This document shows positions 113 through 61,283 of a stretch of DNA of 64,000 bases, in pieces. Origin of the DNA: a bacterium (lineage in GTDB: Bacteria; Patescibacteriota; Minisyncoccia; Phycocordibacterales; SBAW01). Made by a program: the position numbers and the translations under genes. Below the pieces are notes generated by a model, which made no database searches, was not told the origin of the DNA, and saw nothing but the letters and a program-made list of their open reading frames with translations. The stretch's first letter is position 1. Each line of letters starts with the position of its first letter. The DNA lies in the NCBI GenBank assembly GCA_005239955.1, contig SBAW01000011.1, forward strand, positions 6,924-70,923, in the 5' to 3' direction.

Positions 113-2425
113 ATGAAAACTGAGGGCCCAAAATTTTGGCAGCCTAACGACAAGGGATCGAAGCGTCGTTCGAAAAAACAAAATCCAGTAGTGCGTCCAT
201 CATACAATCCGCCTTTTGTATCAAAAAAGACAACCGTCGTATCAACCTCCGTTACCGACGAGAAGACGCCTTCAGTTTCAGCAGAGCCACACTCAAAATA
301 TGTTAACCCCTATAAGTGGGCAGATGATTTTAATACTCGTACAAAAGCCATCGAGGTAAGACAGCCGACAAAAACTCAAAATACTGAGGCCAAGGCGGCG
401 ATTCCTGGCGATTCACGCGCACACATGTCAGAAAGCGAAAGGATTGAAGAATTTACTGAAACTGGAAATTTTTCGTATCTCACACCAGCTCTCGCACGCA
501 AATTAGGCTTTGCTGTTGATGAAAACGGGGTCATCTCACTCTCTACCGAAGACGAAGATACTTTTCGGCATAACGAACTTCTTAAGCTCGGCATTGACAC
601 TGGCGCCCTTCGCAACACGTCTCCAGAATCTGCTCTCGTACAGCTCATTCCACTTGCGGCGACGCGACAAAGTTCGCACGACGATGATGGTGTCGAAAAC
701 AGAAAGTATATTGCGGAGGGTGAAATCCTCGCGCTCATCAGAGAACATCCGGAGAAATATGTCCACGCACTCTTTCGCCTCATTGATCTTAGGCATACCG
801 CTGGGCTGCAGACCATTGCGCTTGTAGATCATCTGACACACTTGATAAAGGATCACGTAACACAACTGCAGGAAGATCAGCAGAATCCGCATCTTCCAAA
901 AGCGCCTTATTATCGTAATCTTTTGAAATCGCTTGATTACATTATGAGTTCCGCAGAAGAGCTGAAAGGAAGATCTTCTTCGGAGCCGGGGGCACTGTAC
1001 TTCGTGAGTGCGAGAGCACAGGTGCTTGCTGATGAGATATTAGCGCTCGAACCTGTCAAACAAGATGTGGATCAAGTCATCCCTTTCGAACTCATAAAAG
1101 GAACATACGCGTTGTTTAGCGGCGACAAAAACCGAATCTATGTTGCTTCGCGTAGCGTATCGAAGAATGTTGCTCAAGCAATACGGACGGGGTGGACGTC
1201 GGAATTCGTAACGCGTGGCCACGACATCCCCTCTTATGATTATGAGTTTGTACCTGAGGCCGTCATCGATCTGCTCGATGATGTCCTCGACTCCGGGACA
1301 CCCATTGATCAGTATCTTGCCAGCATCCCCGCTCTTTCCGAGAAACTTACGCAGGACATGGTTGACGAATATGTTCTCATGCTTGATTCACGTATGCGAA
1401 AGATTATCGAAACTGACCTCAACATCCGGCTGCGCGATCTGTCCATTCCTGAACAACTCTATTTTCTCGAATATGCCAAAACTACGAGCCTGGGTTCGTT
1501 CGCACAACTTTCAGTATTTGTTCAAATTTACGAATCTCTTGGCCTCAGAACCTTTTTAGCCCTTGAACATTTTGATAAAAATTTTGGTGCAGACATTATT
1601 GAATATGGTAATTGGAAAGATGCTCTTGGCAATCGGGACCATGCCGATGAAGTATTCCATCGTTTCGGGAAGTTACAGGATAAAGTCAATGAAGTAAAAG
1701 AATTTCTCGTCGGACATTTTCATAAGAGTGCCGATAAAAAACTGATTTTCGATGTTCAAGAATATGTCCGTAAGCGAGCCGCGCAGTTTTTGGATGATGT
1801 GTTGAGTCATGGGCCTAGTTGGGAATCGTTCGGTAAGACAATCGAGCTGCTTAAAAAGGCCGATGAAGAAGTGGTTTTATTTACCAGTGCGACTAAATTG
1901 TTACAGAAGCGAGGTGAACTCTCACTTGAAGAAATCCAAGGAGTGTCACTTGAACAATATGAGGGTCAAACTATCTCAGAAAAAGATCGTGCCGAGATGC
2001 TTCGCATTCACGCCGAGCGATATCGCGAAAAATATCCCGCGGATCTCTATGAAACGTTGCATGGCCAACTCACCAAAGCTCTTTCGGATGATTCGTCACG
2101 TTTTTATCTCTTACGGCGCAAAGGAGAAATTGTAACCTATGTGAGGTTTGACAGTGCTGAAGAACATAAGAAAGGTGCACATGTTGCTTCCTTCATGACC
2201 GAGTCACGATTTGCGGGCGGTAATTTGGGCGAAGCGCTCTTTGAAGTCGCTCTTCAGCGCGAGCTCGCTCAAGGAAAAACGATATATGGCGAATGTGATC
2301 CACCACTCGCATCGCTCTATGAGCGGCATGGTTTCAAAGTTGTGCGAAAGTATGTCGATGCTCATGGCGTTCCGACGTCTGATATCGAATTAGCTCCCCC
2401 GTCCTCTTCTTCTGCCGCCGTTTGA
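113..2425 (+). CDS. large hypothetical protein (770 aa) with C-terminal GNAT-like acetyltransferase-fold region
   Basis: Long uninterrupted ORF. C-terminus (…GNLGEALFEVALQRELAQGKTIYGECDPPLASLYERHGFKV) resembles the GNAT acyl-CoA binding core. N-terminal two-thirds has no recognisable family. Confidence 0.55.
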   Translation: MKTEGPKFWQPNDKGSKRRSKKQNPVVRPSYNPPFVSKKTTVVSTSVTDEKTPSVSAEPHSKYVNPYKWADDFNTRTKAIEVRQPTKTQNTEAKAAIPGDSRAHMSESERIEEFTETGNFSYLTPALARKLGFAVDENGVISLSTEDEDTFRHNELLKLGIDTGALRNTSPESALVQLIPLAATRQSSHDDDGVENRKYIAEGEILALIREHPEKYVHALFRLIDLRHTAGLQTIALVDHLTHLIKDHVTQLQEDQQNPHLPKAPYYRNLLKSLDYIMSSAEELKGRSSSEPGALYFVSARAQVLADEILALEPVKQDVDQVIPFELIKGTYALFSGDKNRIYVASRSVSKNVAQAIRTGWTSEFVTRGHDIPSYDYEFVPEAVIDLLDDVLDSGTPIDQYLASIPALSEKLTQDMVDEYVLMLDSRMRKIIETDLNIRLRDLSIPEQLYFLEYAKTTSLGSFAQLSVFVQIYESLGLRTFLALEHFDKNFGADIIEYGNWKDALGNRDHADEVFHRFGKLQDKVNEVKEFLVGHFHKSADKKLIFDVQEYVRKRAAQFLDDVLSHGPSWESFGKTIELLKKADEEVVLFTSATKLLQKRGELSLEEIQGVSLEQYEGQTISEKDRAEMLRIHAERYREKYPADLYETLHGQLTKALSDDSSRFYLLRRKGEIVTYVRFDSAEEHKKGAHVASFMTESRFAGGNLGEALFEVALQRELAQGKTIYGECDPPLASLYERHGFKVVRKYVDAHGVPTSDIELAPPSSSSAAV

Positions 2426-3203
2426 ACTTTTTTCGGAATATACGCGAGAGGATTTTGCCACGTGAACTCAAAGAGCGAGCGATGCATTTCATAAATATGC
2501 TTGTCGGCGATAACGACGCCGATCATGCGGTCTCCCAAGGTGAAATAAGACACCTTGCCGTCATAAATTTGCATAACCGTACCAAATGACTGCGTCGGCC
2601 AGGGAATAAGTCGCTCTTCCGTAACGTCAGCAAAATAGTTTTCAATGGCTTTGCGGTTTTCCGGCGTATCAACGCCAATATTTTTCTTTCTGAGTCCAAG
2701 TTTGCGGCGGGCTTTTGCGAAGTCGCGACTGATTTCTGGAATCTCTCGCTCGACGGCATCGATGTCGACATATGAGTAAATATCGGTCTTCGATGTGAGT
2801 GCGTCATTCATAACTTCACGGACTCCTTCCTTATCCTCAAAAAAACGAATACCCGGTTTGCCGCCGGCGAGATTGAAGTCGCCGGTCAGCTTGTCGACAA
2901 TACCCGAGAGCGCGATGTCCGCTTGCTTGGCACGCCCCAGTCGTTTCTCGATGAGTTCCTTAAGTTTGAGCGGATGAGCTGCGGCGAAGATCGCCACTTT
3001 CTGCGGCTCTTCTTTTTTCTCAACCAGCCCCTCCGTCATCAATTGTTCGAGCACCTTATAGACAAGGGGACGCGAAATTTGGAGGCCGCCTCGGCGCGGA
3101 ATCAGGCTTGCCGGAAGCGGGCCCGTTTTTACGAGCGTTTCGTAGACACCTGCTTGATCGCTGGTGAGTCCTGTCTGAACCAATGTTTGTTCATATGCCA
3201 TAG
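2362..3203 (-). CDS. TrmB-family HTH transcriptional regulator
   Basis: N-terminal wHTH (MAYEQTLVQTGLTSDQAGVYETLVKTGPLPASLI…RPLVYKVLEQLMTEGLV) plus C-terminal TrmB-like domain. Likely start MAYEQ at 3203. Confidence 0.6.
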
Positions 3204-3322
3204 ATGGAGGATAGCAAGAATCGGACATTTTGTCAATACTGTGTGACAGTTATATCCAGTATTTCCATTCTATGCTTTACTAAAAGGCTTAAATATGGTG
3301 ACAATATAATAAATTTCTGTCA

Positions 3323-3351
3323 CCATGATATTGACATTAAGTCAAATAGCT
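3323..3351 (+). promoter_or_regulatory. sigma70-like promoter TTGACA-17bp-TATCAT
   Basis: Consensus -35 with 17-bp spacer to TATCAT in an AT-rich region. Flanked upstream by palindromes ACTGTgtgACAGT and TGGTGACA…TGTCACCA. Confidence 0.5.
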
Positions 3352-3962
3352 GCTATCATGTGTGCAGAATCAAGTTCGTTAAAGGGAGGTAATGAACGGA
3401 TCGCCCCCCATTCTCTAGGTCCTTAATTAGGACGGGCACTGCGGCCCTTCGCGAAAGCGAGCTAAGCGCAGAAAGAGGAGAGAGTGGGGATGAGAGGCAA
3501 TCCAATCAATATCTCGTTTGCCGATAACGCGCTCTGGTTTCGATGGGCCGCAAACTTCTCGAGACTATCGAGCTCTGTCTATAAGGCGAGCGTTATCACC
3601 CGTGTCCTGAAGGAGCGACAGACTTTCATGCTTCTTCGGGGAGACATCGGCGGGAGAGGAGGGACTAACCACCTCTCGTCTTCCGGAATGTCTCTACTGC
3701 TTTGGGATGCCAAAGAATGGGAGAGAGGTTTTTTGAAAACTGAATAGTGAACTAGGAATGATCGCAGAACAATAGTTTCTGTCTTATACACAGAACGACT
3801 GCATTGTTGTTCCTCGTCACCGTACTGCGGCGATAGCGTAAGAAACTTATAGCTCGGTTCGGTACGAGGGATCGCATAGCGCGATTCCAAAGAGGAGAAG
3901 AGAAACAAAAACATTACGTCACAGCTCTTCACTCCTCATGAGTTTTTGATTCAAACTTTTTA

Positions 3963-3990
3963 TTCTAGTGTTTTGCAAAACACTAGAATA
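3963..3990. promoter_or_regulatory. perfect 28-bp palindrome ATTCTAGTGTTTTGCAAAACACTAGAAT (putative operator)
   Basis: Exact inverted repeat about 100 bp upstream of the first gene of the GC-rich cassette. Confidence 0.5.
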
Positions 3991-4089
3991 AGGAGAGAAG
4001 CCGAAGTAATTTCGAAAATTCATGAGGGGCGTGTCGCTCCAGCCCATCTCGCGAGGGGGTCGCGAGCATCGAGCCATAAGGAGGGCACG

Positions 4090-4488
4090 ATGGACCAGTT
4101 TTTCGACCTACTCGGCAAAGTCGCTGACTTTGCCGGAGCCGTCGGCGGGATCATCTCCGCCGTCGGCGTACTGAAACTCCTGGCCCGGCAGGGCCAGGAA
4201 AAGCAGGACGTGCGCGTCCTGCTGACGATTCAGGGCGAGGGGAGGAGCGTCGAGCTCCCTCTCGTCTTGAAGCGGCGCGACGTGAGTCGCGCCGAGTTGC
4301 TTGGCCGCATCGGGATGCTCCCGATGCGGCAAAAGGGGGCGAGGTTTTCCCTTCGCGCCCTCTCAACCGCCGCCTTCATGGCGGCGGTCAACGAGGTCGT
4401 GGACGGGAAGTCCACCACGCTCGTCATTCCCGCCTCGCGAGAGGAGGTCGAGCAATTCGATCTTCCCGCGGGCGGGACGGCGGCCTAG
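4090..4488 (+). CDS. hypothetical protein (132 aa), N-terminal hydrophobic helix, GC-rich
   Basis: Strong RBS AAGGAGGG before the ATG. About 65% GC against roughly 50% in the flanks. No family recognised. Confidence 0.5.
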   Translation: MDQFFDLLGKVADFAGAVGGIISAVGVLKLLARQGQEKQDVRVLLTIQGEGRSVELPLVLKRRDVSRAELLGRIGMLPMRQKGARFSLRALSTAAFMAAVNEVVDGKSTTLVIPASREEVEQFDLPAGGTAA

Positions 4489-4737
4489 CGCATAGGGCCG
4501 CCGCGGAGATGTGGGGACTCCGTATTGATTCCTCACTTGGGCGACGCGCGCGTCGAGCGCGTTGTCCGTTGGAAGCTTCGGGGTCTCACGAAGGCCTCGT
4601 AGCTTCCCGAGAGTTTGCAGGTTCTCTCGCTGGTTAAAAACCTGCAACGGTTTGGGGTGAGCGTGGCTTGGTCGCTGCGCTCGCCTCCTTTTTCGAGAGC
4701 GTGGAATGGTTCGCGCACTCGAACAGAGGAGAGAGTA

Positions 4738-5130
4738 ATGATCAAAATAAAAATCCTCTCCGGACCTTACGCGGGGAAGGAGAGGGAGATAACTGAAGAG
4801 ATGGGGGTGGATCCGCACCCGCTCTTTATGGAGTTCGTGCGGTTCGGCTATCGCTGGCATGTGGACTACTCGCGCGCCAACGAGAGCGAGAAGTTCCAGT
4901 GGTGGCGAGAAGATCTCGCGGCACGCATCGTTCGCGCGCTGCGGGAAGGTCGCCCTGTATTCTTCCAAGACGTCGAATACCGCTCATCGTCCAGCAGGGA
5001 CGAGGTGTTCGAGGTCGCCGGCAAGATTGAGGATGCCATCGTCGGCAGCGGCTACTTCGTCACGGTCGGCTACGACGACGAGCGTGGCGTTCTCATCGCG
5101 ACCGGTCCGCGCGAGCACAAACTCCAATGA
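4738..5130 (+). CDS. hypothetical protein (130 aa), GC-rich cassette gene 2
   Basis: RBS AGAGGAGAGAG before the ATG. ORF MIKIKILSGPYAGKEREITEE…. No family recognised. Confidence 0.5.
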   Translation: MIKIKILSGPYAGKEREITEEMGVDPHPLFMEFVRFGYRWHVDYSRANESEKFQWWREDLAARIVRALREGRPVFFQDVEYRSSSSRDEVFEVAGKIEDAIVGSGYFVTVGYDDERGVLIATGPREHKLQ

Positions 5131-5208
5131 AAGGAGGAATAGTTTGTGCTCGCGCTTTCTATTCAGAACGCGAATGGTCGCGTCCTGATTGAAAGAAGGA
5201 GAAGAAAA

Positions 5209-5421
5209 ATGAGATCGAAATCCTCTCGCGTCGTCTTCGGCCTCGTGTTGATCGCCACAGGGGTCGCATATGCCGAATACGCGTGGCCCAAAATGGCCCA
5301 CCTCGGTTGGCTCCAGCCGACATGGATTATCCCGCCAGCCCTCATTCTGTGCGGGATCGCCCTCGGCATTTCCGCCTTCTGGAAACGCAGGGGCCCCAAA
5401 GACCCCGCCAATGATGTGTGA
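5209..5421 (+). CDS. small two-TM membrane protein (70 aa), GC-rich cassette gene 3
   Basis: RBS GAAGGAGAAG. Two hydrophobic segments (VVFGLVLIATGVAYA; IIPPALILCGIALGISAFW). Confidence 0.45.
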   Translation: MRSKSSRVVFGLVLIATGVAYAEYAWPKMAHLGWLQPTWIIPPALILCGIALGISAFWKRRGPKDPANDV

Positions 5422-5534
5422 AAGGAGTATATTCAGGACGAGCCGCAAACTGTGCGGCTCGTCCACCATATCGAGTTTTTATCCTGAGCGTAGTCGAAGG
5501 ATGAAGATTCGTCAGGGATTGCGAAAAAGAAAGT

Positions 5535-5579
5535 CCTTATTCTTATGTTCTGCAGAACTACAGAGCATCAGAATAAGGA
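5535..5579. repeat. stem-loop CCTTATTCT…(27 nt)…AGAATAAGG sharing the AGAATAAGGA motif with the 3963-3995 palindrome
   Basis: 9-bp inverted repeat. The same decamer sits at the downstream edge of the upstream palindrome, so both may mark the cassette boundaries. Confidence 0.4.
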
Positions 5580-5858
5580 TAAGGCGCGCAAATGGTTGTC
5601 AGGGCGCCTGGTGTGATATCGGAGAGAGCCGCGTTTTGGATATGTTCACGTTAGTGGAGATATTCAAAAACTCTCTCCTCGAGCCGAGCACTAAATTTTG
5701 AAAGATTTTAGTGCTCGGTAAACGCGGGTTTCTCCCCGCTGTCGCACCCGGCGTTTTGATCGCCCTATAACCATTCTCTTATTCGCACGAATAGGGGAAT
5801 GGTCTTAAGAATCTAAAAATGTTCGATAGTTTTCGCGCACCATACCGTCTGCTATAGT

Positions 5859-6074
5859 ATGCTCATGTATACAGCGATATATAAAAAAGCTCGAAGCGGC
5901 TATGTTGCTTGGATCGAGGAAATTCCTGGCGTAAACACGCAAGGTGAGACTAAGCGAGAAGCGCAAGAGAATTTGCGTGATGCGTTGAAGGAATTTCTTG
6001 TCGCACGACGCGAAATTACTCGTCGCGCACAGCAGAGCGGTACTATTTCGCGGGGGCGTCTTGCGGTCGCCTAG
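5859..6074 (+). CDS. hicB: HicB-family antitoxin
   Basis: YTAIYKKARSGYVAWIEEIPGVNTQGETKREAQENLRDALKEFL matches the HicB/UPF0150 fold. Immediately followed by hicA. Confidence 0.7.
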   Translation: MLMYTAIYKKARSGYVAWIEEIPGVNTQGETKREAQENLRDALKEFLVARREITRRAQQSGTISRGRLAVA

Positions 6075-6082
6075 CTCGTCTC

Positions 6083-6277
6083 ATGAGACGTCGGGACCTT
6101 GAGCGCCATCTGCGCTTCAACGGCTGTCGGTTCTTTCGTGAAGGCGCAAAGCACAGCGTTTACTACAACCCAAAGAATGGTTTACTCACTACCGTGCCAC
6201 GCCATGCAGAACTTAAAACCTTCCTGACGCGAAAGATATGTAAAGATCTGGGAATTCCTCCTCCAACCAGAAGATAG
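6083..6277 (+). CDS. hicA: HicA-family mRNA interferase toxin
   Basis: LRFNGCRFFREGAKHSVYYNPKNGLLTTVPRHAELKTFLTRKICKDLGI matches the YcfA/HicA motif pattern. Confidence 0.7.
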   Translation: MRRRDLERHLRFNGCRFFREGAKHSVYYNPKNGLLTTVPRHAELKTFLTRKICKDLGIPPPTRR

Positions 6278-7291
6278 TCACTGGTCCTCCAATAGCTGCA
6301 GCGTTTTTTCGTTGCGAAGCACCGATTCAACATAAATAGTTACTCGTTCGCGGTCGGCGTCTTTAAACTGCGTGAGGATGTGGTCGGCTTCGCGTTTGAT
6401 GTCCTCCGCTGGGACTTCCACTTTTTCTTCCTCGGCAATTTTGTTGAGTACCAGTTGGAGTCGCGCACGTTTCTCCGCCCCAGAGCGCCACTCTTTACGC
6501 ATCTCTTCTTCGGTTTTCTTGACGTTTTTGAGGTAATCTTCAAGCGATGAGCCGAGGTGCTTGAGGTCTTCGCGAAGCTGCCCAATCATTTTCTCCAGTT
6601 CGCTTTCAATGAAAAGATTCGGGACTTCAAGCCTCGTTTTCTCAAGGATGGCATCAGTTATGGCCGCGCGACGTTTCTCTTTACTCTCTTGCGCGCGGCG
6701 CTCGGTCAGTCCCTTTTTCGTTGTTTCTTTGAGTTCCGCCAAAGTTTTGAAGTTGCCGAGTTGCATCGCAAATGCGTCATCAATTGGCGGCACTATTTCC
6801 TTGCCCTCGGCGTCTTTGCTCTTGAGTTGCCCCTGAAACTCAACCAAGAGTTTCTCAACATCGGCGTCAATAACCGCATCGGGCTCCTTTTTCTCATGTT
6901 TTTTTGCGATCGATTTGTAATCGGGGAGTTTAATCTCGGGCATGACCGCGGTTGTTGCCGTAAATCCGACCGGATTTCCTGGCGCGAGTTTGGTGAGGGT
7001 AACGGTGGGCCGCCCGACCGCTTCAATGCTCTCTTCTTTGACGGCTTCAAGATAGAGTTCGGGGAACGCGTGCTTCACCGCTTCTTCAAGAACGCCTACT
7101 TCGCCGATGCGCTCTAAGATCATATGCTCGGGCACATGGCCTTTCCGAAACCCCGGAAGCTCGGTTTTCTCCTGCAGTTCCTTCATCGCCTTCGCGCGAA
7201 AGGGGAGGAGAACACCAAAGGGAATTTCTCCTTTGATTTCTACTTCCGAGGCAGGGAGTTTTTTTATGGAAATATTCGTTATGCGAGCCAT
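6278..7291 (-). CDS. tig: trigger factor (short form)
   Basis: N-terminal ribosome-binding domain with GFRKGHVP signature, then PPIase-like and C-terminal arm regions. Confidence 0.75.
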   Translation of the reverse strand: MARITNISIKKLPASEVEIKGEIPFGVLLPFRAKAMKELQEKTELPGFRKGHVPEHMILERIGEVGVLEEAVKHAFPELYLEAVKEESIEAVGRPTVTLTKLAPGNPVGFTATTAVMPEIKLPDYKSIAKKHEKKEPDAVIDADVEKLLVEFQGQLKSKDAEGKEIVPPIDDAFAMQLGNFKTLAELKETTKKGLTERRAQESKEKRRAAITDAILEKTRLEVPNLFIESELEKMIGQLREDLKHLGSSLEDYLKNVKKTEEEMRKEWRSGAEKRARLQLVLNKIAEEEKVEVPAEDIKREADHILTQFKDADRERVTIYVESVLRNEKTLQLLEDQ

Positions 7292-9183: not shown

Positions 9184-10398
9184 TTATTCAGCCTTTTTAG
9201 GTTTCGCCTCCTCAGCTGCCTCATGGACTTCACCAGACTCATCGGTTTGCGCAAGCTCTTTTCCTCTAATAGAGCGGATGTCTATTTTCCAGCCAGTGAG
9301 TTTTGCCGCAAGACGCACATTCTGCCCGCCTTTGCCGATTGCCAAGGACTGCTGATCTTCCGACACTTCAACCGTCGCTTTATGCTCCGCCTCGTCGAGG
9401 CTCACGGAGACGACACGCGCTGGAGAGAGCGCATCTTCAATAAACTGCGCTTGGTTGTCGGACCACTCAATGACGTCAATTTTCTCGCCGCCGAGCTCTG
9501 ACATCACGGTTGAAACGCGCACGCCGCGCTGACCCACAAGCGATCCCACCGGATCAATGTGCTGGTCAACCGAGGCAACCGCAATTTTGCTACGAGAGCC
9601 TGCTTCGCGCGCGATGGCTTTCACGAGTACTGCGCCACTCGCGATTTCCGGAGCCTCAAGCGCGAAGAGTTTTGCCAAAAATTGCGGATGGGAGCGGGAA
9701 AGACGAAGGTAAATGCCGCGCGGGGACTCTTCAACTTGGTAGAGATAGGCGCGAATGCGCTCGCCTTGGCGATAGCGTTCCCCGGGAATTTGTTCTTCAT
9801 AAGGCAAAATACCGGTCGCGCGGCCGAGGTCAACGTAGAGGTTGCCGCGCTCAACACGCTGCACCGTACCGGAGACAATATCGCCTTCGCGCTTGCCGAA
9901 CTCGGCGACAACTGACACTTTTTCGGCTTCGCGGATCTTTTGAATGATGACCTGCTTTGCGGTTTGCGCCGCAATGCGGCCGTAGGCGTCCTGCCCCCCG
10001 GCGGGCGGTTCAAGCGGGAAGATAATCTCATCATCAAGTTGCGCGTCTTTTTTGATGCGCCGCGCATCACTCATCATGATGTGGTGCTCGGGGTTAAAAC
10101 GCACCCGTTCATCCGCGGGGTCCACTTCCGCCGGCGCTTCGCCTTCAGCAAGATCGGTACGGACCATCGTCTCATCCACCACAATCTTTACTTGAGAGAA
10201 TTCAATGGTGCCGGTTGCGATATCAAACTTTGCGCGAACAATTTGTCCTTTTTTGCCGTATTCCTTTTTGTAGGCGGTTGCAAGCGCCGTTTCGATCGCT
10301 TCGATAATTTTTTCACGCGGAATACCGCGCTCCTGCTCGAGCTGATCGAGTACCGAATGAATAACTTTTAAATCCATCATGGTGGTGAGGACTGCCAT
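9184..10398 (-). CDS. nusA: transcription termination/antitermination factor NusA
   Basis: N-terminal domain (LDQLEQERGIPREKIIEAIETALATAYKK), S1 domain and KH domains. Confidence 0.9.
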   Translation of the reverse strand: MAVLTTMMDLKVIHSVLDQLEQERGIPREKIIEAIETALATAYKKEYGKKGQIVRAKFDIATGTIEFSQVKIVVDETMVRTDLAEGEAPAEVDPADERVRFNPEHHIMMSDARRIKKDAQLDDEIIFPLEPPAGGQDAYGRIAAQTAKQVIIQKIREAEKVSVVAEFGKREGDIVSGTVQRVERGNLYVDLGRATGILPYEEQIPGERYRQGERIRAYLYQVEESPRGIYLRLSRSHPQFLAKLFALEAPEIASGAVLVKAIAREAGSRSKIAVASVDQHIDPVGSLVGQRGVRVSTVMSELGGEKIDVIEWSDNQAQFIEDALSPARVVSVSLDEAEHKATVEVSEDQQSLAIGKGGQNVRLAAKLTGWKIDIRSIRGKELAQTDESGEVHEAAEEAKPKKAE

Positions 10399-10651: not shown

Positions 10652-12409
10652 TTGATTCATATGCACATTGAGGAGAAGCAGTTGCGCGTATTCCTCATCG
10701 ACTCACGGCTCGTTTCTGGCAGTGATTTTGATTCGGCGAAGAAAGAGGCGGAAGAAAAAGGGCAGGGTGTCGGCAAGATCCTCGTTTCGCGAGGGTTTTT
10801 AAGCGATGATGATTTGCGCCGCGCGGAGGCCTATGTGCTCGGCATCCCCTTCGTCTCCCTCAAGAATGAGAAGATTCCGTTTGAGGTGCTCTCGCTCATT
10901 CCGGAACCGATCGCCCGCAATCACAACATCGTTGCCTTCAGAAAAAGCGACAGCGGCCTTGAAGTTGCGATGCTCGATACCGAGGACCTCGAGGCAATCG
11001 ACTTCGTTAAGAAAAAAACAAGGCTGAAAATCTTGCCGCGCCTTACCGACAATGAATCAATGAAGGCAGTACTCCTCCAGTATCAAAAAAGTCTCAAAGC
11101 AGAATTTGGGGAACTCATTGAAAAAGAAACGGCCTCGCTCAAAATGGTCACAGAGGCGGGGGCGGAGGGCGCCTCCGAAGCCGAACTTAAAAAGCTCGCC
11201 GAGGATCTCCCCGTTGTCCGTATTGTGGACGCACTGCTGCGCCACGCCATTATTCAAAGCGCTTCCGATATTCACATTGAACCGCAGGAGAAAGAACTCC
11301 TCGTGCGCTACCGCATCGACGGACTCCTTCACGACGCCGTGACCCTTCCCAAAGGTGCGGCGGACTCTTTGACTGCACGCATCAAAGTGCTCTCGAGCCT
11401 CAAACTCGACGAAAAACGCCTTCCCCAAGACGGCCGCTTTAAGGTTGAGTCGGGGGAACAAAAAGTATCGTTTCGCGTGTCAATTCTCCCGACCTACTAT
11501 GGCGAAAAAACCGTGATGCGCTTGCTGCGGGAGAGTGGCGGCGGCTTTACGCTTGAGGGATTGGGGTTTCATGGCGAAGGCTTAGAGCGCATCCACCAGG
11601 CGACGAAACAAACGACCGGCATGATCTTAACGACGGGTCCGACCGGCTCCGGTAAGTCAACAACGCTCTACACCATCCTCGATCTTCTCAATCAGCCTGA
11701 CGTCAATATCTCCACTATTGAAGACCCGATTGAGTACCAAATGCCACGCATCAACCAAACGCAGGTGCGACCTGACATCGGGTTTAGCTTCGCCAAAGGC
11801 ATTCGGACACTTGTGCGCCAAGACCCGGACATCATTATGGTTGGTGAAATTCGCGACGGAGAAACAGCAGGGCTCGCCATTAACGCAGCCCTTACGGGCC
11901 ATCTCGTTCTCTCTACCCTCCATACCAATTCCGCCGCAGGAGCCATTCCGCGCCTTATCGACATGGGCGCGGAGCCGTTCCTCATTGTCTCGACCATTAA
12001 AGTAATCATTGGCCAGCGCCTCGTACGAAAACTTGTCGGGAAAGAAAAATATTTTCTCACGAAGGCCGAGCTTATGAAGCTCGGAGAGACGGTTGAATTG
12101 CCGAAAGTTCTCGAAGCGCTCAAGTCGGAGAAAATTGTTGAGAAAAACGCGACCTGGGACAAGATTCCGTTTTATAAACCAAAGAAAACTCCCGACTCGG
12201 AAGATGGGTACGGCGGACGGATTGGTATTCACGAAATAATGAAAATGTCGCTCACGATCAAAGAGCTTGTGATGAAAAATGCGACCTCTGACGACATTGA
12301 AAAACAAGCACGCTCCGAAGGCATGCTTACTATGCTTGAGGATGGCATATATAAATGTGTGCAGGGCGTGACGACGATTGAAGAAGTGTTGCGAGTCGTA
12401 TCGGAATAA
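10652..12409 (+). CDS. pilB: type IV pilus assembly ATPase PilB/GspE family
   Basis: GSPII_E N-terminal domains, Walker A GPTGSGKSTT, Asp box, His box. Confidence 0.9.
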   Translation: MIHMHIEEKQLRVFLIDSRLVSGSDFDSAKKEAEEKGQGVGKILVSRGFLSDDDLRRAEAYVLGIPFVSLKNEKIPFEVLSLIPEPIARNHNIVAFRKSDSGLEVAMLDTEDLEAIDFVKKKTRLKILPRLTDNESMKAVLLQYQKSLKAEFGELIEKETASLKMVTEAGAEGASEAELKKLAEDLPVVRIVDALLRHAIIQSASDIHIEPQEKELLVRYRIDGLLHDAVTLPKGAADSLTARIKVLSSLKLDEKRLPQDGRFKVESGEQKVSFRVSILPTYYGEKTVMRLLRESGGGFTLEGLGFHGEGLERIHQATKQTTGMILTTGPTGSGKSTTLYTILDLLNQPDVNISTIEDPIEYQMPRINQTQVRPDIGFSFAKGIRTLVRQDPDIIMVGEIRDGETAGLAINAALTGHLVLSTLHTNSAAGAIPRLIDMGAEPFLIVSTIKVIIGQRLVRKLVGKEKYFLTKAELMKLGETVELPKVLEALKSEKIVEKNATWDKIPFYKPKKTPDSEDGYGGRIGIHEIMKMSLTIKELVMKNATSDDIEKQARSEGMLTMLEDGIYKCVQGVTTIEEVLRVVSE

Positions 12410-12411
12410 CT

Positions 12412-13629
12412 ATGCCGCTCTTCAAATACCGCGCGCTTCGGAAAGATGGCACCTCCTACCTCGGGGAAGCAACGGTTGCCGACCGCTTTGCGGTCTATAC
12501 GCACATTCGCCAAGAAGGAGCGACCGCCCTTTCGGTTGAAGAAGTACATTCTTCCCACTGGCTTTCCTGGCAAGGCCTCAACCGACTCCTTTCAACGGTT
12601 CGATTGCAAGACAAGATTGTCTTCACGCGAAATCTTGCGGCGATGATTGAATCAGGACTCGCACTTTCCCGGGCACTCTCGATTCTCGAACGTCAAACAG
12701 GGAATCCGAAACTGAAAAGTGTTCTCGCGGAAATTGGCGCTGACATACGAAAAGGCTCTACGCTTCATGACGCGCTCGCAAAATTCCCCCGTGTCTTTTC
12801 ATCGCTGTTTGTTTCTATGGTGAAGGCGGGCGAAGAGTCTGGGTCTCTTGCTAAATCACTCCATGTTGTTGCAACACAAATGGAGCGTGCGTACCAACTA
12901 TCGCGAAAAGTGCGCGGCGCCCTTATTTATCCTGCCATTATTGTTACCGCGATGGTTGTCATTGGGATCCTTATGATGATTTACGTCGTGCCCACACTCT
13001 CCTCAACCTTTAAAGAACTTGGCATGGAACTTCCCACGTCAACGACCGTCATCATCACGGTAAGCGATTTTTTGGTCGCGAACACCTTCGTCGCACTTCT
13101 GCTCCTTCTTATCGTTGCCGGCGGACTCGTCCTCGCTTCGCGCACTAACAGAGGGAAACGTGTTCTTGAATGGGTCATCCTCCATATCCCCATCATTGGT
13201 GGAATTGTGAAAGAGGTAAATGCGGCGCGCACGGCGCGCACCCTCTCTTCGCTCCTCTCGGCAGGGGTTGAGGTTGTCTCGGCACTCCTTATCACCGAAG
13301 AAGTGCTCCAGAACTCATATTATAAAGACGTGCTTAAAGCCGCGCGCGAACTGGTGCAAAAAGGTACGCCCATTTCGGATCAATTTCTCCAGCACACCGA
13401 CATCTACCCGCTTATGTTTGGCGAAATGGTGGCGGTGGGGGAGGAAACGGGAGAATTGACTGCCATGCTGACGAAGATTGCTGATTTCTATGAAGGAGAA
13501 GTTGAACAAAAAACGAAAGATATTTCAACGGTCATTGAGCCGTTCCTCATGATTGTCATTGGCGCGGGGGTCGGATTCTTTGCCTACGCCATGGTTGTGC
13601 CGATTTACTCCATAAGTAGTGGCATCTAG
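12412..13629 (+). CDS. pilC: type IV pilus platform protein PilC/GspF family
   Basis: Two GspF repeats and a polytopic membrane domain. Starts directly after pilB. Confidence 0.85.
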   Translation: MPLFKYRALRKDGTSYLGEATVADRFAVYTHIRQEGATALSVEEVHSSHWLSWQGLNRLLSTVRLQDKIVFTRNLAAMIESGLALSRALSILERQTGNPKLKSVLAEIGADIRKGSTLHDALAKFPRVFSSLFVSMVKAGEESGSLAKSLHVVATQMERAYQLSRKVRGALIYPAIIVTAMVVIGILMMIYVVPTLSSTFKELGMELPTSTTVIITVSDFLVANTFVALLLLLIVAGGLVLASRTNRGKRVLEWVILHIPIIGGIVKEVNAARTARTLSSLLSAGVEVVSALLITEEVLQNSYYKDVLKAARELVQKGTPISDQFLQHTDIYPLMFGEMVAVGEETGELTAMLTKIADFYEGEVEQKTKDISTVIEPFLMIVIGAGVGFFAYAMVVPIYSISSGI

Positions 13630-14086
13630 TATGACGAGCTCTACACGCGGCTTTACTCTCATAGAGGTCATCATCGCAGTCCTCATTGTAGTTTTGGTCA
13701 CTGGAGTTTTTGTAGCGTCGTTTCGGTCTTTTTCTGCTCGTCGCGCACTTGATGGCGCCTCTGCCCATGTGATATCAGCCCTTGAAGTGGCACGCACACA
13801 AACACTCGATTCACTCTCCGATTCGCAGTATGGCGTCCATATTGAAGCGACACGCGTTACCATTTTTAAAGGCGCGACCTATACGCAAGGCCACGTCGAT
13901 AACCGAATCATAAATCTCTCTCCACAGGTTAGGGTCACCTCATCTCTTACCGGTGGAGTAACTGATGTTACCTTTATGCGCCTTACCGGTAAGGCAAGCG
14001 TGACCGGAACGGTTACTATTACCCTCGTGGCGGATACCTCACAAACGCGGGTTATTACTATCGCCCCCGGCGGCATAAGCTCATGA
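13619..14086 (+). CDS. type IV pilin-like protein (prepilin N-terminal cleavage/methylation domain)
   Basis: N-terminus …RGFTLIEVIIAVLIVVLVTGVF is a class III signal peptide. Confidence 0.8.
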   Translation: MASSMTSSTRGFTLIEVIIAVLIVVLVTGVFVASFRSFSARRALDGASAHVISALEVARTQTLDSLSDSQYGVHIEATRVTIFKGATYTQGHVDNRIINLSPQVRVTSSLTGGVTDVTFMRLTGKASVTGTVTITLVADTSQTRVITIAPGGISS

Positions 14087-14304
14087 ACGGATTTGATGAA
14101 AATCGCGATCTGCTTTGTTGTAGCCTCCGGCGCTCCCTCACCTTATGTTTCCATAAGGCTCAGTTCATTTCTTACAGAAACCGTACACCTTTCGGCAATC
14201 TTCTTCGCACAACTCGAACATTGCTCGAAAGGTCTTGCGAAGCTTCAGGTATTCGCTTCTCACATCGGCTACGTCGCGCATCTCATCGATTTTCATCAAA
14301 TCCG

Positions 14305-15327
14305 GTGACTCGTAGTATAACGAATCAGCGCGGTGTCACCCTTATTGAAGTTGTTATCGGCGTCGCCATTATTGCGCTTTCGTTTGTCGGCATTCTCATT
14401 GCCTCGCGCCAATATGTTGTGGTTGGCCTCGGCAATACCGAAAAACTCCAAGCCGCTTATTTTGCCGAAGAAGGGATAGAAATTGTGCGGGCACTACGCG
14501 ATCGCAGCTGGAATACGTTCGCCGCGCTCGGGACGTCAACGACCTATTACCTTGCACCGGTTGCGGGAGTGTGGGAAGCAACCACGACGCCAACTACCAC
14601 ACTTGTTGGCTTTACACGTACCGTTGCATTAGGAAGTGTCTATCGCAACAGCACGTCGCATGACATTGTTTCTGCGACATCGTCCAATAATTATCTGGAC
14701 CCCTTGGGCCGTTTCGTGAGGGTAACCGTTTCCTGGGGTGGAGGCCTTCAGACAAGTGCTGTTTCTTATGAAGGCGGTACCACTGACTCCAATCTGGCGA
14801 GCTTCCCGTCAAATAATGCGGGCGACGGTGACCCCGCGCAGAGTTTTACCACGGGGAGCGAAAGTGTCTCGGCGGGAAGTGTCGCGCTTCTTCTCAAACG
14901 AGTCGGCAGTCCCTCGAACGTGTATCTTGAAATCCGGAGTGGCAGTACGGTCGGAGTGGTCCTTGGCACTTCAGGAACGGTGGCGAGTTCGTCTATCCCC
15001 ACGTCGGCCCTCACGTGGACCTCTTTTACCTTTTCCTCACCCGTCCCTCTTGCGGCAAACACCACATACTATCTGCGACTGCGGAGCACCCCCGATTCAA
15101 CGATCGTCTTTTCGGGTTCCGCCGGCACGCTCAACTGGGGCTACCTTCAAACGGCGCAAAGCCCCTATGCAGGAGGGACGGCGTATCGCTATGTGGGGCG
15201 CCAAGGAAACCAAAGCGACCAAGGTCAGTCACTAACGCAGTATGACTTCTCATTTCGCGTTATAACTGCTGGCGGAGGAAACACAACAGAGGTACAGACG
15301 TACCTTATGCGCCTTTTCAATAACTAG
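14305..15327 (+). CDS. large minor pilin-like protein (prepilin-type N-terminus)
   Basis: QRGVTLIEVVIGVAIIALSFVGIL motif. Start uncertain: in-frame GTG at 14305, ORF open from 14083. Confidence 0.6.
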   Translation: MTRSITNQRGVTLIEVVIGVAIIALSFVGILIASRQYVVVGLGNTEKLQAAYFAEEGIEIVRALRDRSWNTFAALGTSTTYYLAPVAGVWEATTTPTTTLVGFTRTVALGSVYRNSTSHDIVSATSSNNYLDPLGRFVRVTVSWGGGLQTSAVSYEGGTTDSNLASFPSNNAGDGDPAQSFTTGSESVSAGSVALLLKRVGSPSNVYLEIRSGSTVGVVLGTSGTVASSSIPTSALTWTSFTFSSPVPLAANTTYYLRLRSTPDSTIVFSGSAGTLNWGYLQTAQSPYAGGTAYRYVGRQGNQSDQGQSLTQYDFSFRVITAGGGNTTEVQTYLMRLFNN

Positions 15328-15329
15328 AC

Positions 15330-15845
15330 ATGAGACCCCATCACTCACAACGTGGTTTCTCCCTTCTCGAAATGCTTATCTATATCAGCATTCTTGCGGT
15401 CATATCGGCGGTTGTGGTGGGGTCGCTTATTCCTCTTGCACGCTCGTATCGCCAGGTCGTGATGGCCTTGGCGATTAATAACTCCGGTTCTGCGGCGCTT
15501 GAGCGGATGGTCCGCGAAGTGCGACAGGCGACTGATGTCGGAGCAGGAAGTGTTCTCAACTCTTCACCAGGGACCCTCGTCCTTTCCTCGCTTGATAGCA
15601 CGGGCAACCCGATAACCATCACGTTTGATGTCTCGGGGGGAGCGGTGCGTATTACGGAGGGGGCGGGAACTCCCTACGCACTTACCGGCAGCGGTGTTGC
15701 GGTTTCGTCGCTCATCTTTACCTCGCAAACCAACGCGACCACCTCAAAGTTGGTTGGCATTGATCTCACATTAACGTCGACGGTTGGAGCACTTACGCGG
15801 TCGACACGATTTAAAGCAGGGGGCACGCTGCGCAATAGCTACTAA
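15330..15845 (+). CDS. pilin/pseudopilin-like protein
   Basis: SQRGFSLLEMLIYISILAVISAVVVG prepilin motif. Confidence 0.75.
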   Translation: MRPHHSQRGFSLLEMLIYISILAVISAVVVGSLIPLARSYRQVVMALAINNSGSAALERMVREVRQATDVGAGSVLNSSPGTLVLSSLDSTGNPITITFDVSGGAVRITEGAGTPYALTGSGVAVSSLIFTSQTNATTSKLVGIDLTLTSTVGALTRSTRFKAGGTLRNSY

Positions 15846-15846
15846 T

Positions 15847-17130
15847 ATGATGCACCATTCACCGTTCGAGCGAGGCCAGGCCGTTATAGGCGGCGTTCTG
15901 TTTTTCTTGGGGACTGCACTTGTGGTGGTGGGGGCTATCGCGGCACCCGTCATCAGTGGCAGTGTATCTGCACGAAGCCTCGTAACGTCAAAAGCAACCT
16001 ATGCGGGTTCGGAGGGGCTTCTTGAAGATGGGGTTTACCGCGTCATAACGGGCAAAGCACTCACGAACCCTCTGGTCATGACGGTCGGCGGTTCAACCGT
16101 CACGGTCTCTTCGCAGGATGTGGGGAGCGAGAAGGTCATTACCGCATCTGCAACGACCGATAATCGTGTGCGAAAGACGCAGGCGCGCCTGTTTCAAGGA
16201 ACCGGCGTGTCATTTTTCTATGGCGTACAAACTGATACGGGCGGCATCACCATGGTGAACTCCGCAACCGTTGAGGGAAATGTCTTTAGCAATGGTCCTG
16301 TAACAGGCGCAAACTCGAATCTGGTAAAAGGCTCGGTCGTTTCTGCCGGTCCTACCGGTCTTATCGATGGCATTAATGCGACGAGCTCCGCTTATGCCCA
16401 CACCATCCGCAATTCCGATGTTGACGGCAATGCCTACTACACGACGATTTCAAATACTTCGGTTGGCGGAACCTCTTATCCCAGTAGCCCCGATCAAGCA
16501 ACATCCACGCTCCCCATAACCGATGAAGAGATTGAGACATGGAAAACGGAAGCTGCGGCCGGCGGCACACACACCAGTCCCTGCCCCTACTCGATTACTG
16601 GCTCGGTGACACTGGGGCCACGGAAAATTAACTGCGATCTCATTATTTCAGGGAGCGCCATCATCACGCTTACTGGGCCTCTGTGGGTTGTTGGCAACAT
16701 CTCGTTTGCGAATTCTTCCGTTATCAACATCAGCTCTTCGGTGGGGAATAAAAGTATCGCGATTGTCGCCGACAATCCTAGTGATCAACTTGGTGGCAGT
16801 AGAATTACCATTTCAAACAGCACGGATTTTAATGGCAATGGCGGCGATCGCTCATACGTGCTCCTCGTCTCTCAAAATAGAAGTGCGCAGTCGGGTGGCG
16901 GCACCAAAGCAATTACGATTTCAAACAGTGCAAACGGCGATCTACTTCTCTATGCGGGTCACGGAGAGATTGAACTCAGTAACAGCATAAATCTTGCCGA
17001 AGTGAGCGCGTGGCGCATTCGCATCTCCAATAGTGCGAAGGTGATTTATAAAAGCGGACTCAGCAATCTCCTCTTTTCCTCCGGTCCATCGGGCGGTTAC
17101 AGCATCAGTAGTTGGCAAGAAACGCAGTGA
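15847..17130 (+). CDS. pilus-associated large exported protein (possible tip/minor pilin)
   Basis: N-terminal TM segment (AVIGGVLFFLGTALVVVGAIAAP), Thr/Ser/Gly-rich beta-type body. Last gene of the pilus cluster. Confidence 0.5.
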   Translation: MMHHSPFERGQAVIGGVLFFLGTALVVVGAIAAPVISGSVSARSLVTSKATYAGSEGLLEDGVYRVITGKALTNPLVMTVGGSTVTVSSQDVGSEKVITASATTDNRVRKTQARLFQGTGVSFFYGVQTDTGGITMVNSATVEGNVFSNGPVTGANSNLVKGSVVSAGPTGLIDGINATSSAYAHTIRNSDVDGNAYYTTISNTSVGGTSYPSSPDQATSTLPITDEEIETWKTEAAAGGTHTSPCPYSITGSVTLGPRKINCDLIISGSAIITLTGPLWVVGNISFANSSVINISSSVGNKSIAIVADNPSDQLGGSRITISNSTDFNGNGGDRSYVLLVSQNRSAQSGGGTKAITISNSANGDLLLYAGHGEIELSNSINLAEVSAWRIRISNSAKVIYKSGLSNLLFSSGPSGGYSISSWQETQ

Positions 17131-17191
17131 TTATTGTTGACTTTAGGTAGCGCGGGGCGTTTCATGGAGAGAACGAGTTCACCTCAACTTT

Positions 17192-17656
17192 TTGGGAAGG
17201 GAGGGGACCATGTCCCTCGAGAGAGAGTTCGATCGCATTGATGGCGACGGCAGCGACTGTGCGCCACCCTATCATGCCGCGCTATGGTCTCGTCTGGCCT
17301 CGCGCGAGGTACCGGATGCCACGTGGCAGATCATGGTGTCCGTTGGCGACGTAGCGACGTTTCATATCAGCCGGCGCCCGCATCGCGGATTTCTTCGCTT
17401 GAAGCAGAGTGGGTCAATTCGGGTGAAGAGGGGCGTTCTTGCTGAGGCGTTGCGTAATGGTAGAAGTGCGCAGCATCTTTCGAAGACTCAGCGACTGAAC
17501 GAAGTGGCCGGAAGCTGGCGTCTCAACGCGAAGATTCTGCATAGGACACTCACCCTCGTCGTCGAGCACAAACCCTTCTTCGGTCGCACGCGGTCGACAG
17601 TCTTCCACTGCAGCGAAGAGGAACAACGTCGACTATTCGAGCTGATGGAAATCTAG
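17192..17656 (+). CDS. hypothetical protein, GC-rich islet
   Basis: ORF in a roughly 58% GC stretch. Followed by hairpin GGGCGCCC-N12-GGGCGCCC at 17659-17690. Confidence 0.35.
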   Translation: MGREGTMSLEREFDRIDGDGSDCAPPYHAALWSRLASREVPDATWQIMVSVGDVATFHISRRPHRGFLRLKQSGSIRVKRGVLAEALRNGRSAQHLSKTQRLNEVAGSWRLNAKILHRTLTLVVEHKPFFGRTRSTVFHCSEEEQRRLFELMEI

Positions 17657-17890
17657 CGAGAGGGGCGCCCGATCTCCGGATTGGGCGCCCGCTTCGTGCT
17701 AATATTTCGCCATGGCGAAGCGACTGATCGTAGCTAACTGTCCCACAACGCCTGCGCTTCTGCGCAGCTGCGATGTGTGGATCCCGTCATGCTCGCAACT
17801 TCGTGCTGTACTGTCTCTCTCGCGCCGAGGCGCAGTCGAAGGGATCCGCCAACCCGCAATCGCATGTTGTGCGAGCGTGTTGGGGAGAAA

Positions 17891-18658
17891 ATGAATCGTA
17901 TGAAAAAGACACGACTTATAGTGGCTAACTGGAAGATGAATCCAGTTACATTCACGGAAGCAAAGAAAATTGTGGAAGCAACAAAGCGCGCGGCAAGCCG
18001 CGCGCGAGGCGTCTCTGTTGTTGTTTGTCCACCGGCAATCTATCTTGCCGCACTTAGGAAAGGGTCACGGGCGATGGCGTTTGGAGTCCAAGATATTGGA
18101 GCGCATGAGGCTGGGGCATTTACCGGAGAAATTTCGGCCGAGATGGCACGAAATAGTGGTGCAACCGTTGCTATAGTGGGGCATTCAGAACGTCGTCGTC
18201 TTGGCGAATCAAATGCCGTCGTTGCGAAAAAGGTGGCGGCAGCCCTTGCCGCCAAACTCACCCCCATCCTCTGTATCGGAGAGAATATACGCGACGCGGG
18301 GGGAGACTATTTAAGTGTTGTTCGTGCACAAATTATGGAAGGGCTTGCTGAAGTGTCGACTCCTCTCGTCCCCAAAGTCATCATTGCGTATGAACCGGTC
18401 TGGGCCATCGGGAAGAAAGCAGGCGATGCTATTTTGCCTGCCGACCTCCACGAGATGTCTATTTTTATAAAAAAAGTTATTGCGGAGCGTATTGATCGAG
18501 CGAAGGCGCTTAACGTCACGATTCTCTATGGCGGTTCGGTTGAGCCTGAAAACGCTCATGCGTTGTTGACGAGTGGTGATGTTGATGGATTTCTTGTTGG
18601 TCACACAAGTCTCGACACAACCGAATTCCCACTCGTCATCAAAGCCGCGGCATCATGA
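17891..18658 (+). CDS. tpiA: triosephosphate isomerase
   Basis: VANWKMN…, …GHSERR…, …GGSV… are canonical TIM motifs. Confidence 0.9.
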   Translation: MNRMKKTRLIVANWKMNPVTFTEAKKIVEATKRAASRARGVSVVVCPPAIYLAALRKGSRAMAFGVQDIGAHEAGAFTGEISAEMARNSGATVAIVGHSERRRLGESNAVVAKKVAAALAAKLTPILCIGENIRDAGGDYLSVVRAQIMEGLAEVSTPLVPKVIIAYEPVWAIGKKAGDAILPADLHEMSIFIKKVIAERIDRAKALNVTILYGGSVEPENAHALLTSGDVDGFLVGHTSLDTTEFPLVIKAAAS

Positions 18659-61186: not shown

Positions 61187-61206
61187 AGGGCGGGTAAAGT
61201 GTGAGT

Positions 61207-61279
61207 GCGCCCATAGCTCAATGGTAGAGCATCCGACTTATACTCGGACGGTTTGCAGGTTCGAGTCCTGCTGGGCGCA
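61207..61279 (+). tRNA. tRNA-Ile (anticodon UAU, decodes AUA)
   Basis: Cloverleaf: acceptor GCGCCCA/UGGGCGC, D-arm GCUC/GAGC, anticodon arm UCCGA-CUUAUAC-UCGGA, T-arm GCAGG-UUCGAGU-CCUGC, discriminator A. CCA not encoded. Confidence 0.8.
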
Positions 61280-61283
61280 CCCC

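Follow-up and report, generated by a model that had tools for sequence, protein, structure and literature searches.

A GC-rich variable island with a Csx23-family gene, located behind a TrmB-like regulator gene and a structured leader RNA

Csx23, its relatives and their contexts

Csx23 of Vibrio cholerae is a tetrameric membrane protein encoded in a type III-B CRISPR locus, and its cytoplasmic domain binds cyclic tetra-adenylate (cA4) (Gruschow et al., NAR 2024, PMC11014256; PDB 8qjk). Residues R95 and R110 are essential to cA4 binding and immunity, F111 stacks on adenine, and E97 bridges subunits; the nearest fold of the C-terminal domain is PB1, and the tetramer model has eight transmembrane helices, therefore two per protomer (PMC11014256). 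Csx23 is rare, being found in 4 of 1113 type III loci (PMC11229360). Here, we describe a relative in a 64,000-nucleotide stretch of contig SBAW01000011.1 (positions 6,924 to 70,923, forward strand; assembly GCA_005239955.1), called the window below, from what we infer to be a Candidate Phyla Radiation (CPR)-type bacterium. Its gene, open reading frame 1 (ORF1; 4090-4488, + strand; 132 aa), is the first of three small genes in a GC-rich island. We somewhat favor the view that ORF1 is an orphan Csx23-type sensor of cyclic oligoadenylate, carried as foreign cargo at a recurrent variable site that is marked by a TrmB-like gene and a leader RNA. The family is known, and its context here has no earlier description; novelty is greatest in the leader RNA and the hot spot.

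Can ORF1 be placed in the Csx23 family? A preliminary description of this DNA, made from its letters, recognized no family among the island proteins, a statement that fails for ORF1: it matches the PADLOC Csx23 profile PDLC01550 with E = 4.4e-22 over 101 of 102 profile positions, and phmmer aligns it to the solved V. cholerae C-terminal domain (PDB 8qjk, chain A) with E = 3.4e-6. The ORF1 residues R67, E69, R85, and F86 align to R95, E97, R110, and F111 (the SRAE...RF motifs); the first three do not vary among 52 homologs, and conservation of F86 reaches at least 90%. The binding loop of ORF1 is 3 residues longer than that of V. cholerae Csx23. The AlphaFold 2 model (pLDDT 91.5) has a single long N-terminal helix, spanning residues 2-37, and a small alpha/beta domain of the beta-grasp/PB1-like type; hydropathy, which exceeds 1.5 at residues 7-33, likewise indicates one helix, not two. 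Foldseek, run with the full-length model, places PB1 and ubiquitin-like folds at the top with weak scores (E = 0.2-0.4) and does not retrieve 8qjk. Judged by its sequence, ORF1 is a Csx23-family protein with a predicted C-terminal domain of the cA4-binding type. It shares with the V. cholerae protein an N-terminal membrane helix followed by a small cytoplasmic C-terminal domain, the cA4-contact residues, and perhaps the fold class. Besides the longer loop, the two differ in three respects: (i) one helix is predicted for ORF1, as opposed to the two per protomer implied for Csx23; (ii) Csx23 belongs to a type III-B system, whereas no cognate type III system of ORF1 was found in the 64 kb; and (iii) the surroundings of ORF1 are a variable, GC-rich island preceded by a TrmB-like gene and a leader RNA.

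What surrounds the other members of the family? Csx23-like relatives came from 30 loci in genomes and 34 in metagenomes, of which many are short (individual loci are denoted by handles such as L005). The distant relatives (~30-40% identity), from Chloroflexi, Chlorobi, cyanobacteria, and others, adjoin Cas10, fused Cas7, and Cas5 of type III-D/III-B systems; the CRISPR-linked loci L013-L036 are mostly 30-40% identical to ORF1, with 42-51% in L013, L014, L020, and L026. Like ORF1, these type III-D/III-B genes are of the ~125-aa class, match the same PADLOC model ("CAS-III-D associated"), and have the same motifs; unlike the ORF1 clade, which is GC-rich, they have a GC content equal to or below that of the host. 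Relatives with at least 50% identity are labeled Parcubacteria, Saccharibacteria, and Kaiserbacteria, a few being probably mis-binned. In most of these loci the Csx23-like gene has a GC content of 0.55-0.73, compared to 0.35-0.53 for the host; in two loci it falls to 0.43-0.44, still exceeding that of the locus. Across ~20 loci of the CPR clade, the gene has a third-position GC content (GC3) of 0.63-0.92 in most hosts with GC 0.35-0.53, even where synteny is conserved.

Where the loci of the closest relatives are long enough, none of the ORFs within about +/-8 kb falls into a cas gene family of the CRISPR-linked loci, and the PADLOC matches listed for these relatives (the best 25 of 103 families) include no cas family. 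The window has no CRISPR array and no match to a Cas10, RAMP, CARF, or CD-NTase model; within its 64 kb, ORF1 is not encoded with a type III system that would supply cA4. No Csx23-like sequence was found in IMG/VR or in phage or plasmid collections, and no literature link was found between Csx23 and CPR genomes or this site. CPR genomes rarely carry CRISPR-Cas.

The clade is also set apart by an RNA feature inside the gene. A 12-bp hairpin of ORF1 (4304-4330, + strand; GCCGCAUCGGGA-UGC-UCCCGAUGCGGC) retains 11-12 of its 12 pairs in many of the closest (at least 50% identical) homologs via paired synonymous third-position changes; covariation is 0.170, compared to 0.086 in shuffled alignments, and none of 500 shuffles reaches 0.170. 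The type III-D/III-B genes do not keep this hairpin, which is degraded to 4-9 of 12 pairs in the CRISPR-linked homologs.

Three side observations concern L002. In this locus, a separate promoter and a leader of 140 nt precede the Csx23-like gene; a GC-rich segment of ~250 nt without an ORF (9500-9790), which ends in a terminator-like hairpin and may be a non-coding RNA, lies between rpsI and the Csx23-like gene; and four tandem paralogs of 551-575 aa (11080-17982), with no Pfam family, follow just downstream of the Csx23-like gene and grpE.

A variable site: composition, promoter, leader RNA, and cargo

The island stands out by composition. Segment 4030-5470 has a GC content of 0.607 against a mean of 0.516 (sd 0.023; 1.4-kb windows across 64 kb; z = 4.0); it is the most GC-rich 1.4 kb of the 64 kb and the sole segment with GC of at least 0.575. 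The ~65% GC claimed at the outset for the whole cassette applies to ORF1 (0.657) but not to ORF2 (0.593), ORF3 (0.601), or the segment as a whole. GC3 is 0.835 in ORF1, 0.756 in ORF2, and 0.732 in ORF3, with second-position GC (GC2) lower in each, while 24 host genes have a GC3 of 0.544 +/- 0.048 and a maximum of 0.645; high GC3 with lower GC2 is what true coding frames with a GC-rich origin would be expected to show. The preliminary description rightly saw three consecutive small ORFs with Shine-Dalgarno sites (AAGGAGG for ORF1, GGAGAGAG for ORF2, and AAGGAG for ORF3) and had made its case depend on a coding signal, which is found in each as coding-type GC3 (0.73-0.84). Hydropathy also bears out the topology it had assigned: one N-terminal hydrophobic segment in ORF1, none in ORF2 (4738-5130, + strand; 130 aa, soluble), and two in ORF3 (5209-5421, + strand; 70 aa, or 91 aa if translation starts at GTG 5146). 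A coding-type GC pattern is missing from two long antisense ORFs (201 and 161 aa). The foreign origin proposed for the segment stands, given a GC z of 4.0, GC3 above that of all 24 host genes, and the variable site: 4030-5470 is compositionally foreign accessory cargo.

How is this cargo positioned? Two anchor genes precede it. The first encodes a 770-aa protein with a C-terminal GNAT domain (113-2425, + strand; Pfam Acetyltransf_1, residues 628-741, E = 3.5e-6), which has very divergent homologs (15-20% identity) at the same position in L005, L010, L011, and L037. The second, divergent from the island, encodes a TrmB-like winged-helix regulator (2362-3228, - strand; Pfam TrmB, E = 1.6e-10). 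The same pair precedes the cargo in the window and in these four loci, and a TrmB-like gene lies upstream of a Csx23-like or other cargo gene in at least 11 loci. Facing the island is a sigma-70-type promoter, TTGACA-17-TATCAT (3331-3359, + strand; 11 of 12 consensus matches), and an equivalent cargo-facing promoter (TTGACA-17-TATACT) is present in 11 of 12 loci. When 12 loci are aligned, TGACA forms an invariant core, and the remainder of the -35 and the -10 hardly varies; an alignment of the last 75 nt before the first cargo gene is uninformative. A palindrome, TTGACattaaGTCAA, covers the -35 element in the window, and a TTGAC-N-GTCAA palindrome often occupies the same place in other loci; TTGACattaaGTCAA may serve the TrmB-like protein as an operator. 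On the opposite strand, a promoter-like site (3236-3208, - strand) overlaps the annotated TrmB-like start; the protein probably starts at the Met at 3201. The two divergent promoters (3208-3236, - strand, and 3331-3359, + strand) are near mirror images that form a 29-nt inverted repeat with 72% complementarity, and both have a TG preceding the -10 element.

Downstream of the cargo-facing promoter lies a structured leader or non-coding RNA (3474-3760, + strand; outer limits approximate), with GGAGAGAG motifs flanking the whole. It contains an invariant GUUUGC/GCAAAC hairpin (3516-3555), whose loop (3523-3530, GAUAACGC) pairs with 3590-3597 (GCGUUAUC), and, ~280 nt downstream of the promoter, a 66-nt three-helix hairpin with a UAACCAC loop (3636-3701), in which 13 of 19 predicted pairs show compensatory changes among 6 sequences. 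Six loci keep the loop pairing (GAUAACGC/GCGUUAUC, GAUAGCG/CGCUAUC, GAUGCGC/GCGCAUC, GAUGCAG/UUGCAUC, AGGCGUGG/UUGCGCCU, and GCAGG/CCUGC); since the paired segments differ across the loci yet stay complementary, we conclude that the RNA forms a pseudoknot. A covariance model (R1; 6-sequence seed) retrieves two further loci, L045 and L051, and nothing else in 667 kb, and the RNA is present in eight loci: the window, L008, L010, L037, L045, L046, L051, and L053. The L037 copy precedes a first cargo gene that is not Csx23-like; thus, the leader RNA goes with the site rather than with Csx23. Rfam cmscan gives chance-level matches only, none of them over the leader (window 2500-7000 at E <= 1; L005, L010, and L037 at E <= 0.1), and in the libraries searched neither the leader RNA nor the ORF2 family nor the hot spot seems to have been described before. 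At least 120 viral stretches matched a loose DNA pattern of the leader; none of the 80 examined passes the covariance model, and the matches were set aside as chance. An 87-aa ORF at 3484-3747 was rejected as a gene: it lacks coding-type GC, has no homolog in the loci compared, and overlaps the covarying RNA.

Behind the leader, cargo genes differ from locus to locus and have a GC3 of 0.55-0.82, as opposed to 0.25-0.42 for the anchor genes. Toxin-antitoxin genes follow the cargo in three loci: HicBA in the window, MNT/HEPN with CopG in L005, and AbiEii/DUF6922 in L037. Rows of GC-rich ORFs on the same strand, with AT-rich spacers between them, occupy 7800-16000 in L005 and 10400-13600 in L010; these spacers repeat whole modules, as 83-205-nt repeats with up to 97-100% identity, and contain imperfect inverted repeats TTCCAGAA..TTCTGAAA.

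ORF2 is a conserved uncharacterized protein family. An exhaustive HMMER search found 180 clusters, while word-index protein searches, with the single sequence and with a profile, returned almost no matches; its profile finds only chance-level matches among PDB sequences, and its structure model is confident yet has no match to any solved fold. No stretch of the ORF2 alignments is conserved enough to serve as a pattern for locus searches, and ORF2 was not found in the phage and plasmid collections. An ORF2-like gene lies near a Csx23-like gene in 3 of ~60 Csx23-like loci (the window, L010, and L055), with two other genes in between in L010; L037 has an ORF2-like gene and no Csx23-like gene, and in L038 and L040 no Csx23-like gene stands beside the ORF2-like one on the available sequence, which ends close upstream. 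In L037 (6635-7831) and L041 (1491-3230), the proteins encoded directly upstream of the ORF2-like gene have DHH motifs, joined by DPDPDG in L037; the DHH signs in L037_398 are weak, with a Pfam score under the curated cut-off, and may link a phosphoesterase to nucleotide signaling.

A gene has been lost between ORF1 and ORF2. The spacer at 4489-4602 (+ strand), translated in frame as SVLIPHLGDARVERVV, matches the C-termini of two proteins of a family that we call X, L038_211 (73% over 15 aa, E = 0.008) and L040_407 (E = 0.017), and the nucleotide alignment agrees. In L038 and L040, the gene for a family X protein (400-550 aa) immediately precedes the ORF2-like gene, and in L010 and L012 it immediately follows the Csx23-like gene; because the spacer matches their C-termini and X flanks the two partners elsewhere, we take the gene to have been deleted here. 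The relic is followed by a terminator-like hairpin (4654-4697, + strand; 14-bp stem and a T-run), and tandem strong hairpins, different in sequence from those of the window, also lie upstream of the ORF2-like gene in L038 and L040. Neither family X nor the other cargo proteins match a Pfam, PADLOC, PHROGs, or NCBIfam family or have a GGDD-type cyclase motif, the exception being L037_398 with its weak DHH signs.

Two hairpins with identical outer arms mark the borders of the island. On the left, a composite hairpin (3934-4027; 94 nt, -44.4 kcal/mol, z = -8.95) encloses a perfect palindrome at 3960-3991, reported earlier as 28 bp and in fact 32 bp long, which ends in AGAATAAGGA (3985-3994); on the right lies an inverted repeat (5534-5579; -25 kcal/mol, z = -6.2) with arms TCCTTATTCT and AGAATAAGGA. 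The decamer said to be common to both hairpins is indeed so: exact AGAATAAGGA occurs three times on both strands of the 64 kb, always within these two hairpins, and with one mismatch there are 11 matches versus 3.1 expected, a number that none of 100 shuffles reaches. The border palindromes are non-random. It was further suggested that such repeats might recur as island borders; the decamer is absent from the borders of the other loci compared. A junction module of L005, TTTTCCAGAAMAT...CTGAAAATTGG, lies between cargo ORFs and, in a scan of the whole locus, only inside the island; this repeat is confined to the genome of L005. With the decamer and the L005 repeat each specific to its locus, there is no universal border sequence. 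In the window, the border hairpins, with their identical arms, take a bracketing role analogous to that of the L005 module.

Is the site, then, an integron? Like sedentary chromosomal integrons, it has foreign ORFs on the same strand behind one promoter, a divergent gene by that promoter, and a row that includes toxin-antitoxin genes or ends in them; like attC hairpins, the border hairpins of the window and L005 are imperfect, with conserved outer arms and variable centers. The R'/R'' core consensus of attC is GTTRRRY, which the border arms, TTATTCT/AGAATAA in the window and TTCCAGAA/TTCTGAAA in L005, do not fit; and the spacers, unlike those of integrons, extend over 200-500 bp, with additional repeated modules inside them. 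No integrase adjoins the site, none is among the Pfam matches listed for 92 neighboring proteins (the best 25), and Rfam gives no match. With neither an integrase nor an attC-type core found, the likeness to integrons is an analogy only.

A proposed role for ORF1 and its signal

What might this site do? It has a TrmB-like gene reading one way and, the other way, a promoter and a ~300-nt pseudoknotted leader, followed by interchangeable GC-rich genes; in the window the cargo comprises the Csx23-family gene, the stump of gene X, an ORF2-family gene, and a tiny membrane ORF with two helices, with a toxin-antitoxin pair closing the row. Transcription from the promoter, presumably under TrmB control, would read through the structured leader into the cargo. 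ORF1 would be a membrane-anchored tetramer, the cytoplasmic domains of which may close, by means of R67, R85, and F86, round a cyclic oligoadenylate, cA4 being the likeliest; binding would then perturb the transmembrane helices, the membrane would be damaged or depolarized, and phage spread would be halted. ORF2 and ORF3 would be separate passengers from the same cargo pool and not obligate partners of ORF1. Of the roles suggested in the preliminary description, one in defense would be plausible in the case of ORF1, and the cargo is indeed followed by a toxin-antitoxin pair; nothing ties hicBA to the cassette in function, and toxin-antitoxin genes of other types take its distal place in L005 and L037.

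Several points weigh against this model. Binding of cA4 and toxicity are predictions for the ORF1 clade; the ligand could differ, because the clade is 30-40% identical to its CRISPR-linked relatives and has the longer binding loop. A type III system may exist elsewhere in the genome, the sequence examined amounting to 64-76 kb on a contig of 76 kb, and the PADLOC result on the neighboring loci covers the best 25 families out of 103. The sole strong promoter for ORF1 lies 730 nt upstream and is common to the leader RNA; none was found immediately before ORF1, and the model assumes that transcription passes the 94-nt hairpin. Finally, with gene X lost, the local module may be in decay.

Where would the signal come from? 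CBASS and Panoptes mCpol systems encode their own cyclase beside the effector. Their membrane effectors resemble ORF1, as proposed here, in that a cyclic nucleotide is sensed and the gene is not next to Cas10; the cyclase, however, is at hand in these systems, while none is detectable around ORF1. With no Cas10 or other cyclase nearby, the ORF1 signal would arise elsewhere in the genome or from some other source. One such origin would be a Cas10 system on another contig, to whose cA4 ORF1 would respond as an ordinary type III ancillary gene encoded at a distance. Membership in the Csx23 family, the kept binding residues, and the fact that every characterized and every distant homolog is CRISPR-linked speak for such a system, and the 64-76 kb examined leave room for it. 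We nevertheless consider it unlikely: the longer clade loci have, within about +/-8 kb, no cas family in common with the CRISPR-linked ones, neither the PADLOC matches listed nor the 64-kb window contain a cas gene, the clade has a conserved context of its own (TrmB-like gene and leader RNA) that the CRISPR-linked clade lacks, and CRISPR-Cas is seldom found in CPR genomes. Should a Cas10 system turn up elsewhere in these genomes, ORF1 would be an ordinary distal ancillary gene, and the RNA and the hot spot would stay of interest.

Alternatively, the Csx23 fold of this clade could have been repurposed, outside defense, to sense another nucleotide or a metabolite in a membrane response controlled by TrmB and the leader, the site being a regulon. 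Many genomes stably pair the gene with this regulator and this leader RNA, which fits the idea, as does the lack of a signal generator nearby, and the covarying in-gene hairpin of the clade suggests an extra layer of regulation. It is rather improbable, nonetheless, as the cA4-contact residues are kept (R67 and R85 invariant, F86 nearly so), a housekeeping regulon would not be expected to hold variable cargo of foreign composition, and terminal toxin-antitoxin genes are typical of mobile or defense islands. The third explanation, a self-contained and undescribed three-protein defense or addiction module with its own operator (the membrane anchor, effector, and tiny membrane protein of the preliminary description), draws on the common strand, close spacing, and shared foreign GC of ORF1-3, on the matching hairpins that bracket exactly these genes, and on the ORF2-like genes near Csx23-like ones in L010 and L055, and is very improbable in view of the terminator-like hairpin and gene relic that part ORF1 from ORF2, the two genes that split the pair in L010, the lack of an ORF2-like gene in most Csx23-like loci (many on short contigs), its presence without a Csx23-like gene in L037, and the failure of ORF3 to find a relative in any locus compared.

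Within the orphan-sensor model, the Csx23 clade would live outside CRISPR loci, in small CRISPR-poor genomes, as foreign DNA at the same regulated site, and it is this that puts the source of the signal in question. A bolder version, which we regard as unlikely, has the site as a widespread, integrase-free cassette platform of CPR bacteria (a TrmB-like repressor, a pseudoknotted and possibly ligand-sensing leader of a new class, interchangeable and persistently GC-rich "dark-matter" cassettes, and a toxin-antitoxin end) and the Csx23 clade as uncoupled from Cas10, its signal made by a synthase in the cargo (family X or other 400-580-aa proteins) or outside the cell, for example by the bacterial host of an episymbiont. 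The hot spot may also explain the exchange of accessory genes among CPR genomes.

Further hairpins and neighboring genes

ORF3 is inferred to be a real gene; it has no significant family match, with chance-level hits to Pfam (E = 0.17) and PHROGs (E = 0.011 and 0.012). A perfect 15-bp hairpin (5109-5155, + strand) spans the ORF2 stop codon and an AAGGAGG site and has GTG 5146 inside it. Downstream of ORF3, a GC-rich hairpin, GGACGAGCCGCA/UGCGGCUCGUCC (5433-5480, + strand), is followed a few bases on by TTTTT and likely ends the ORF2-ORF3 transcript; a simple terminator scan missed it because the T-run begins more than 2 nt past the stem. A further hairpin, long and imperfect (GGAGAGAGCCGCGTTT...AAACGCGGGTTTCTCC; 5621-5735), separates the border repeat on the right from hicB and encloses a perfect 12-bp stem (5684-5718).

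The adjoining hicBA genes, recognized as such from the start, are hicB (5859-6074, + strand; Pfam UPF0150, E = 5.4e-9) and hicA (6083-6277, + strand; HicA_toxin, E = 9e-11). They lie 8 nt apart, as a HicAB pair, and have a GC content of 0.50, like the host. Far downstream, the window contains a tmRNA gene (55616-56010) and a tRNA-Ile gene with anticodon TAT (61206-61282).

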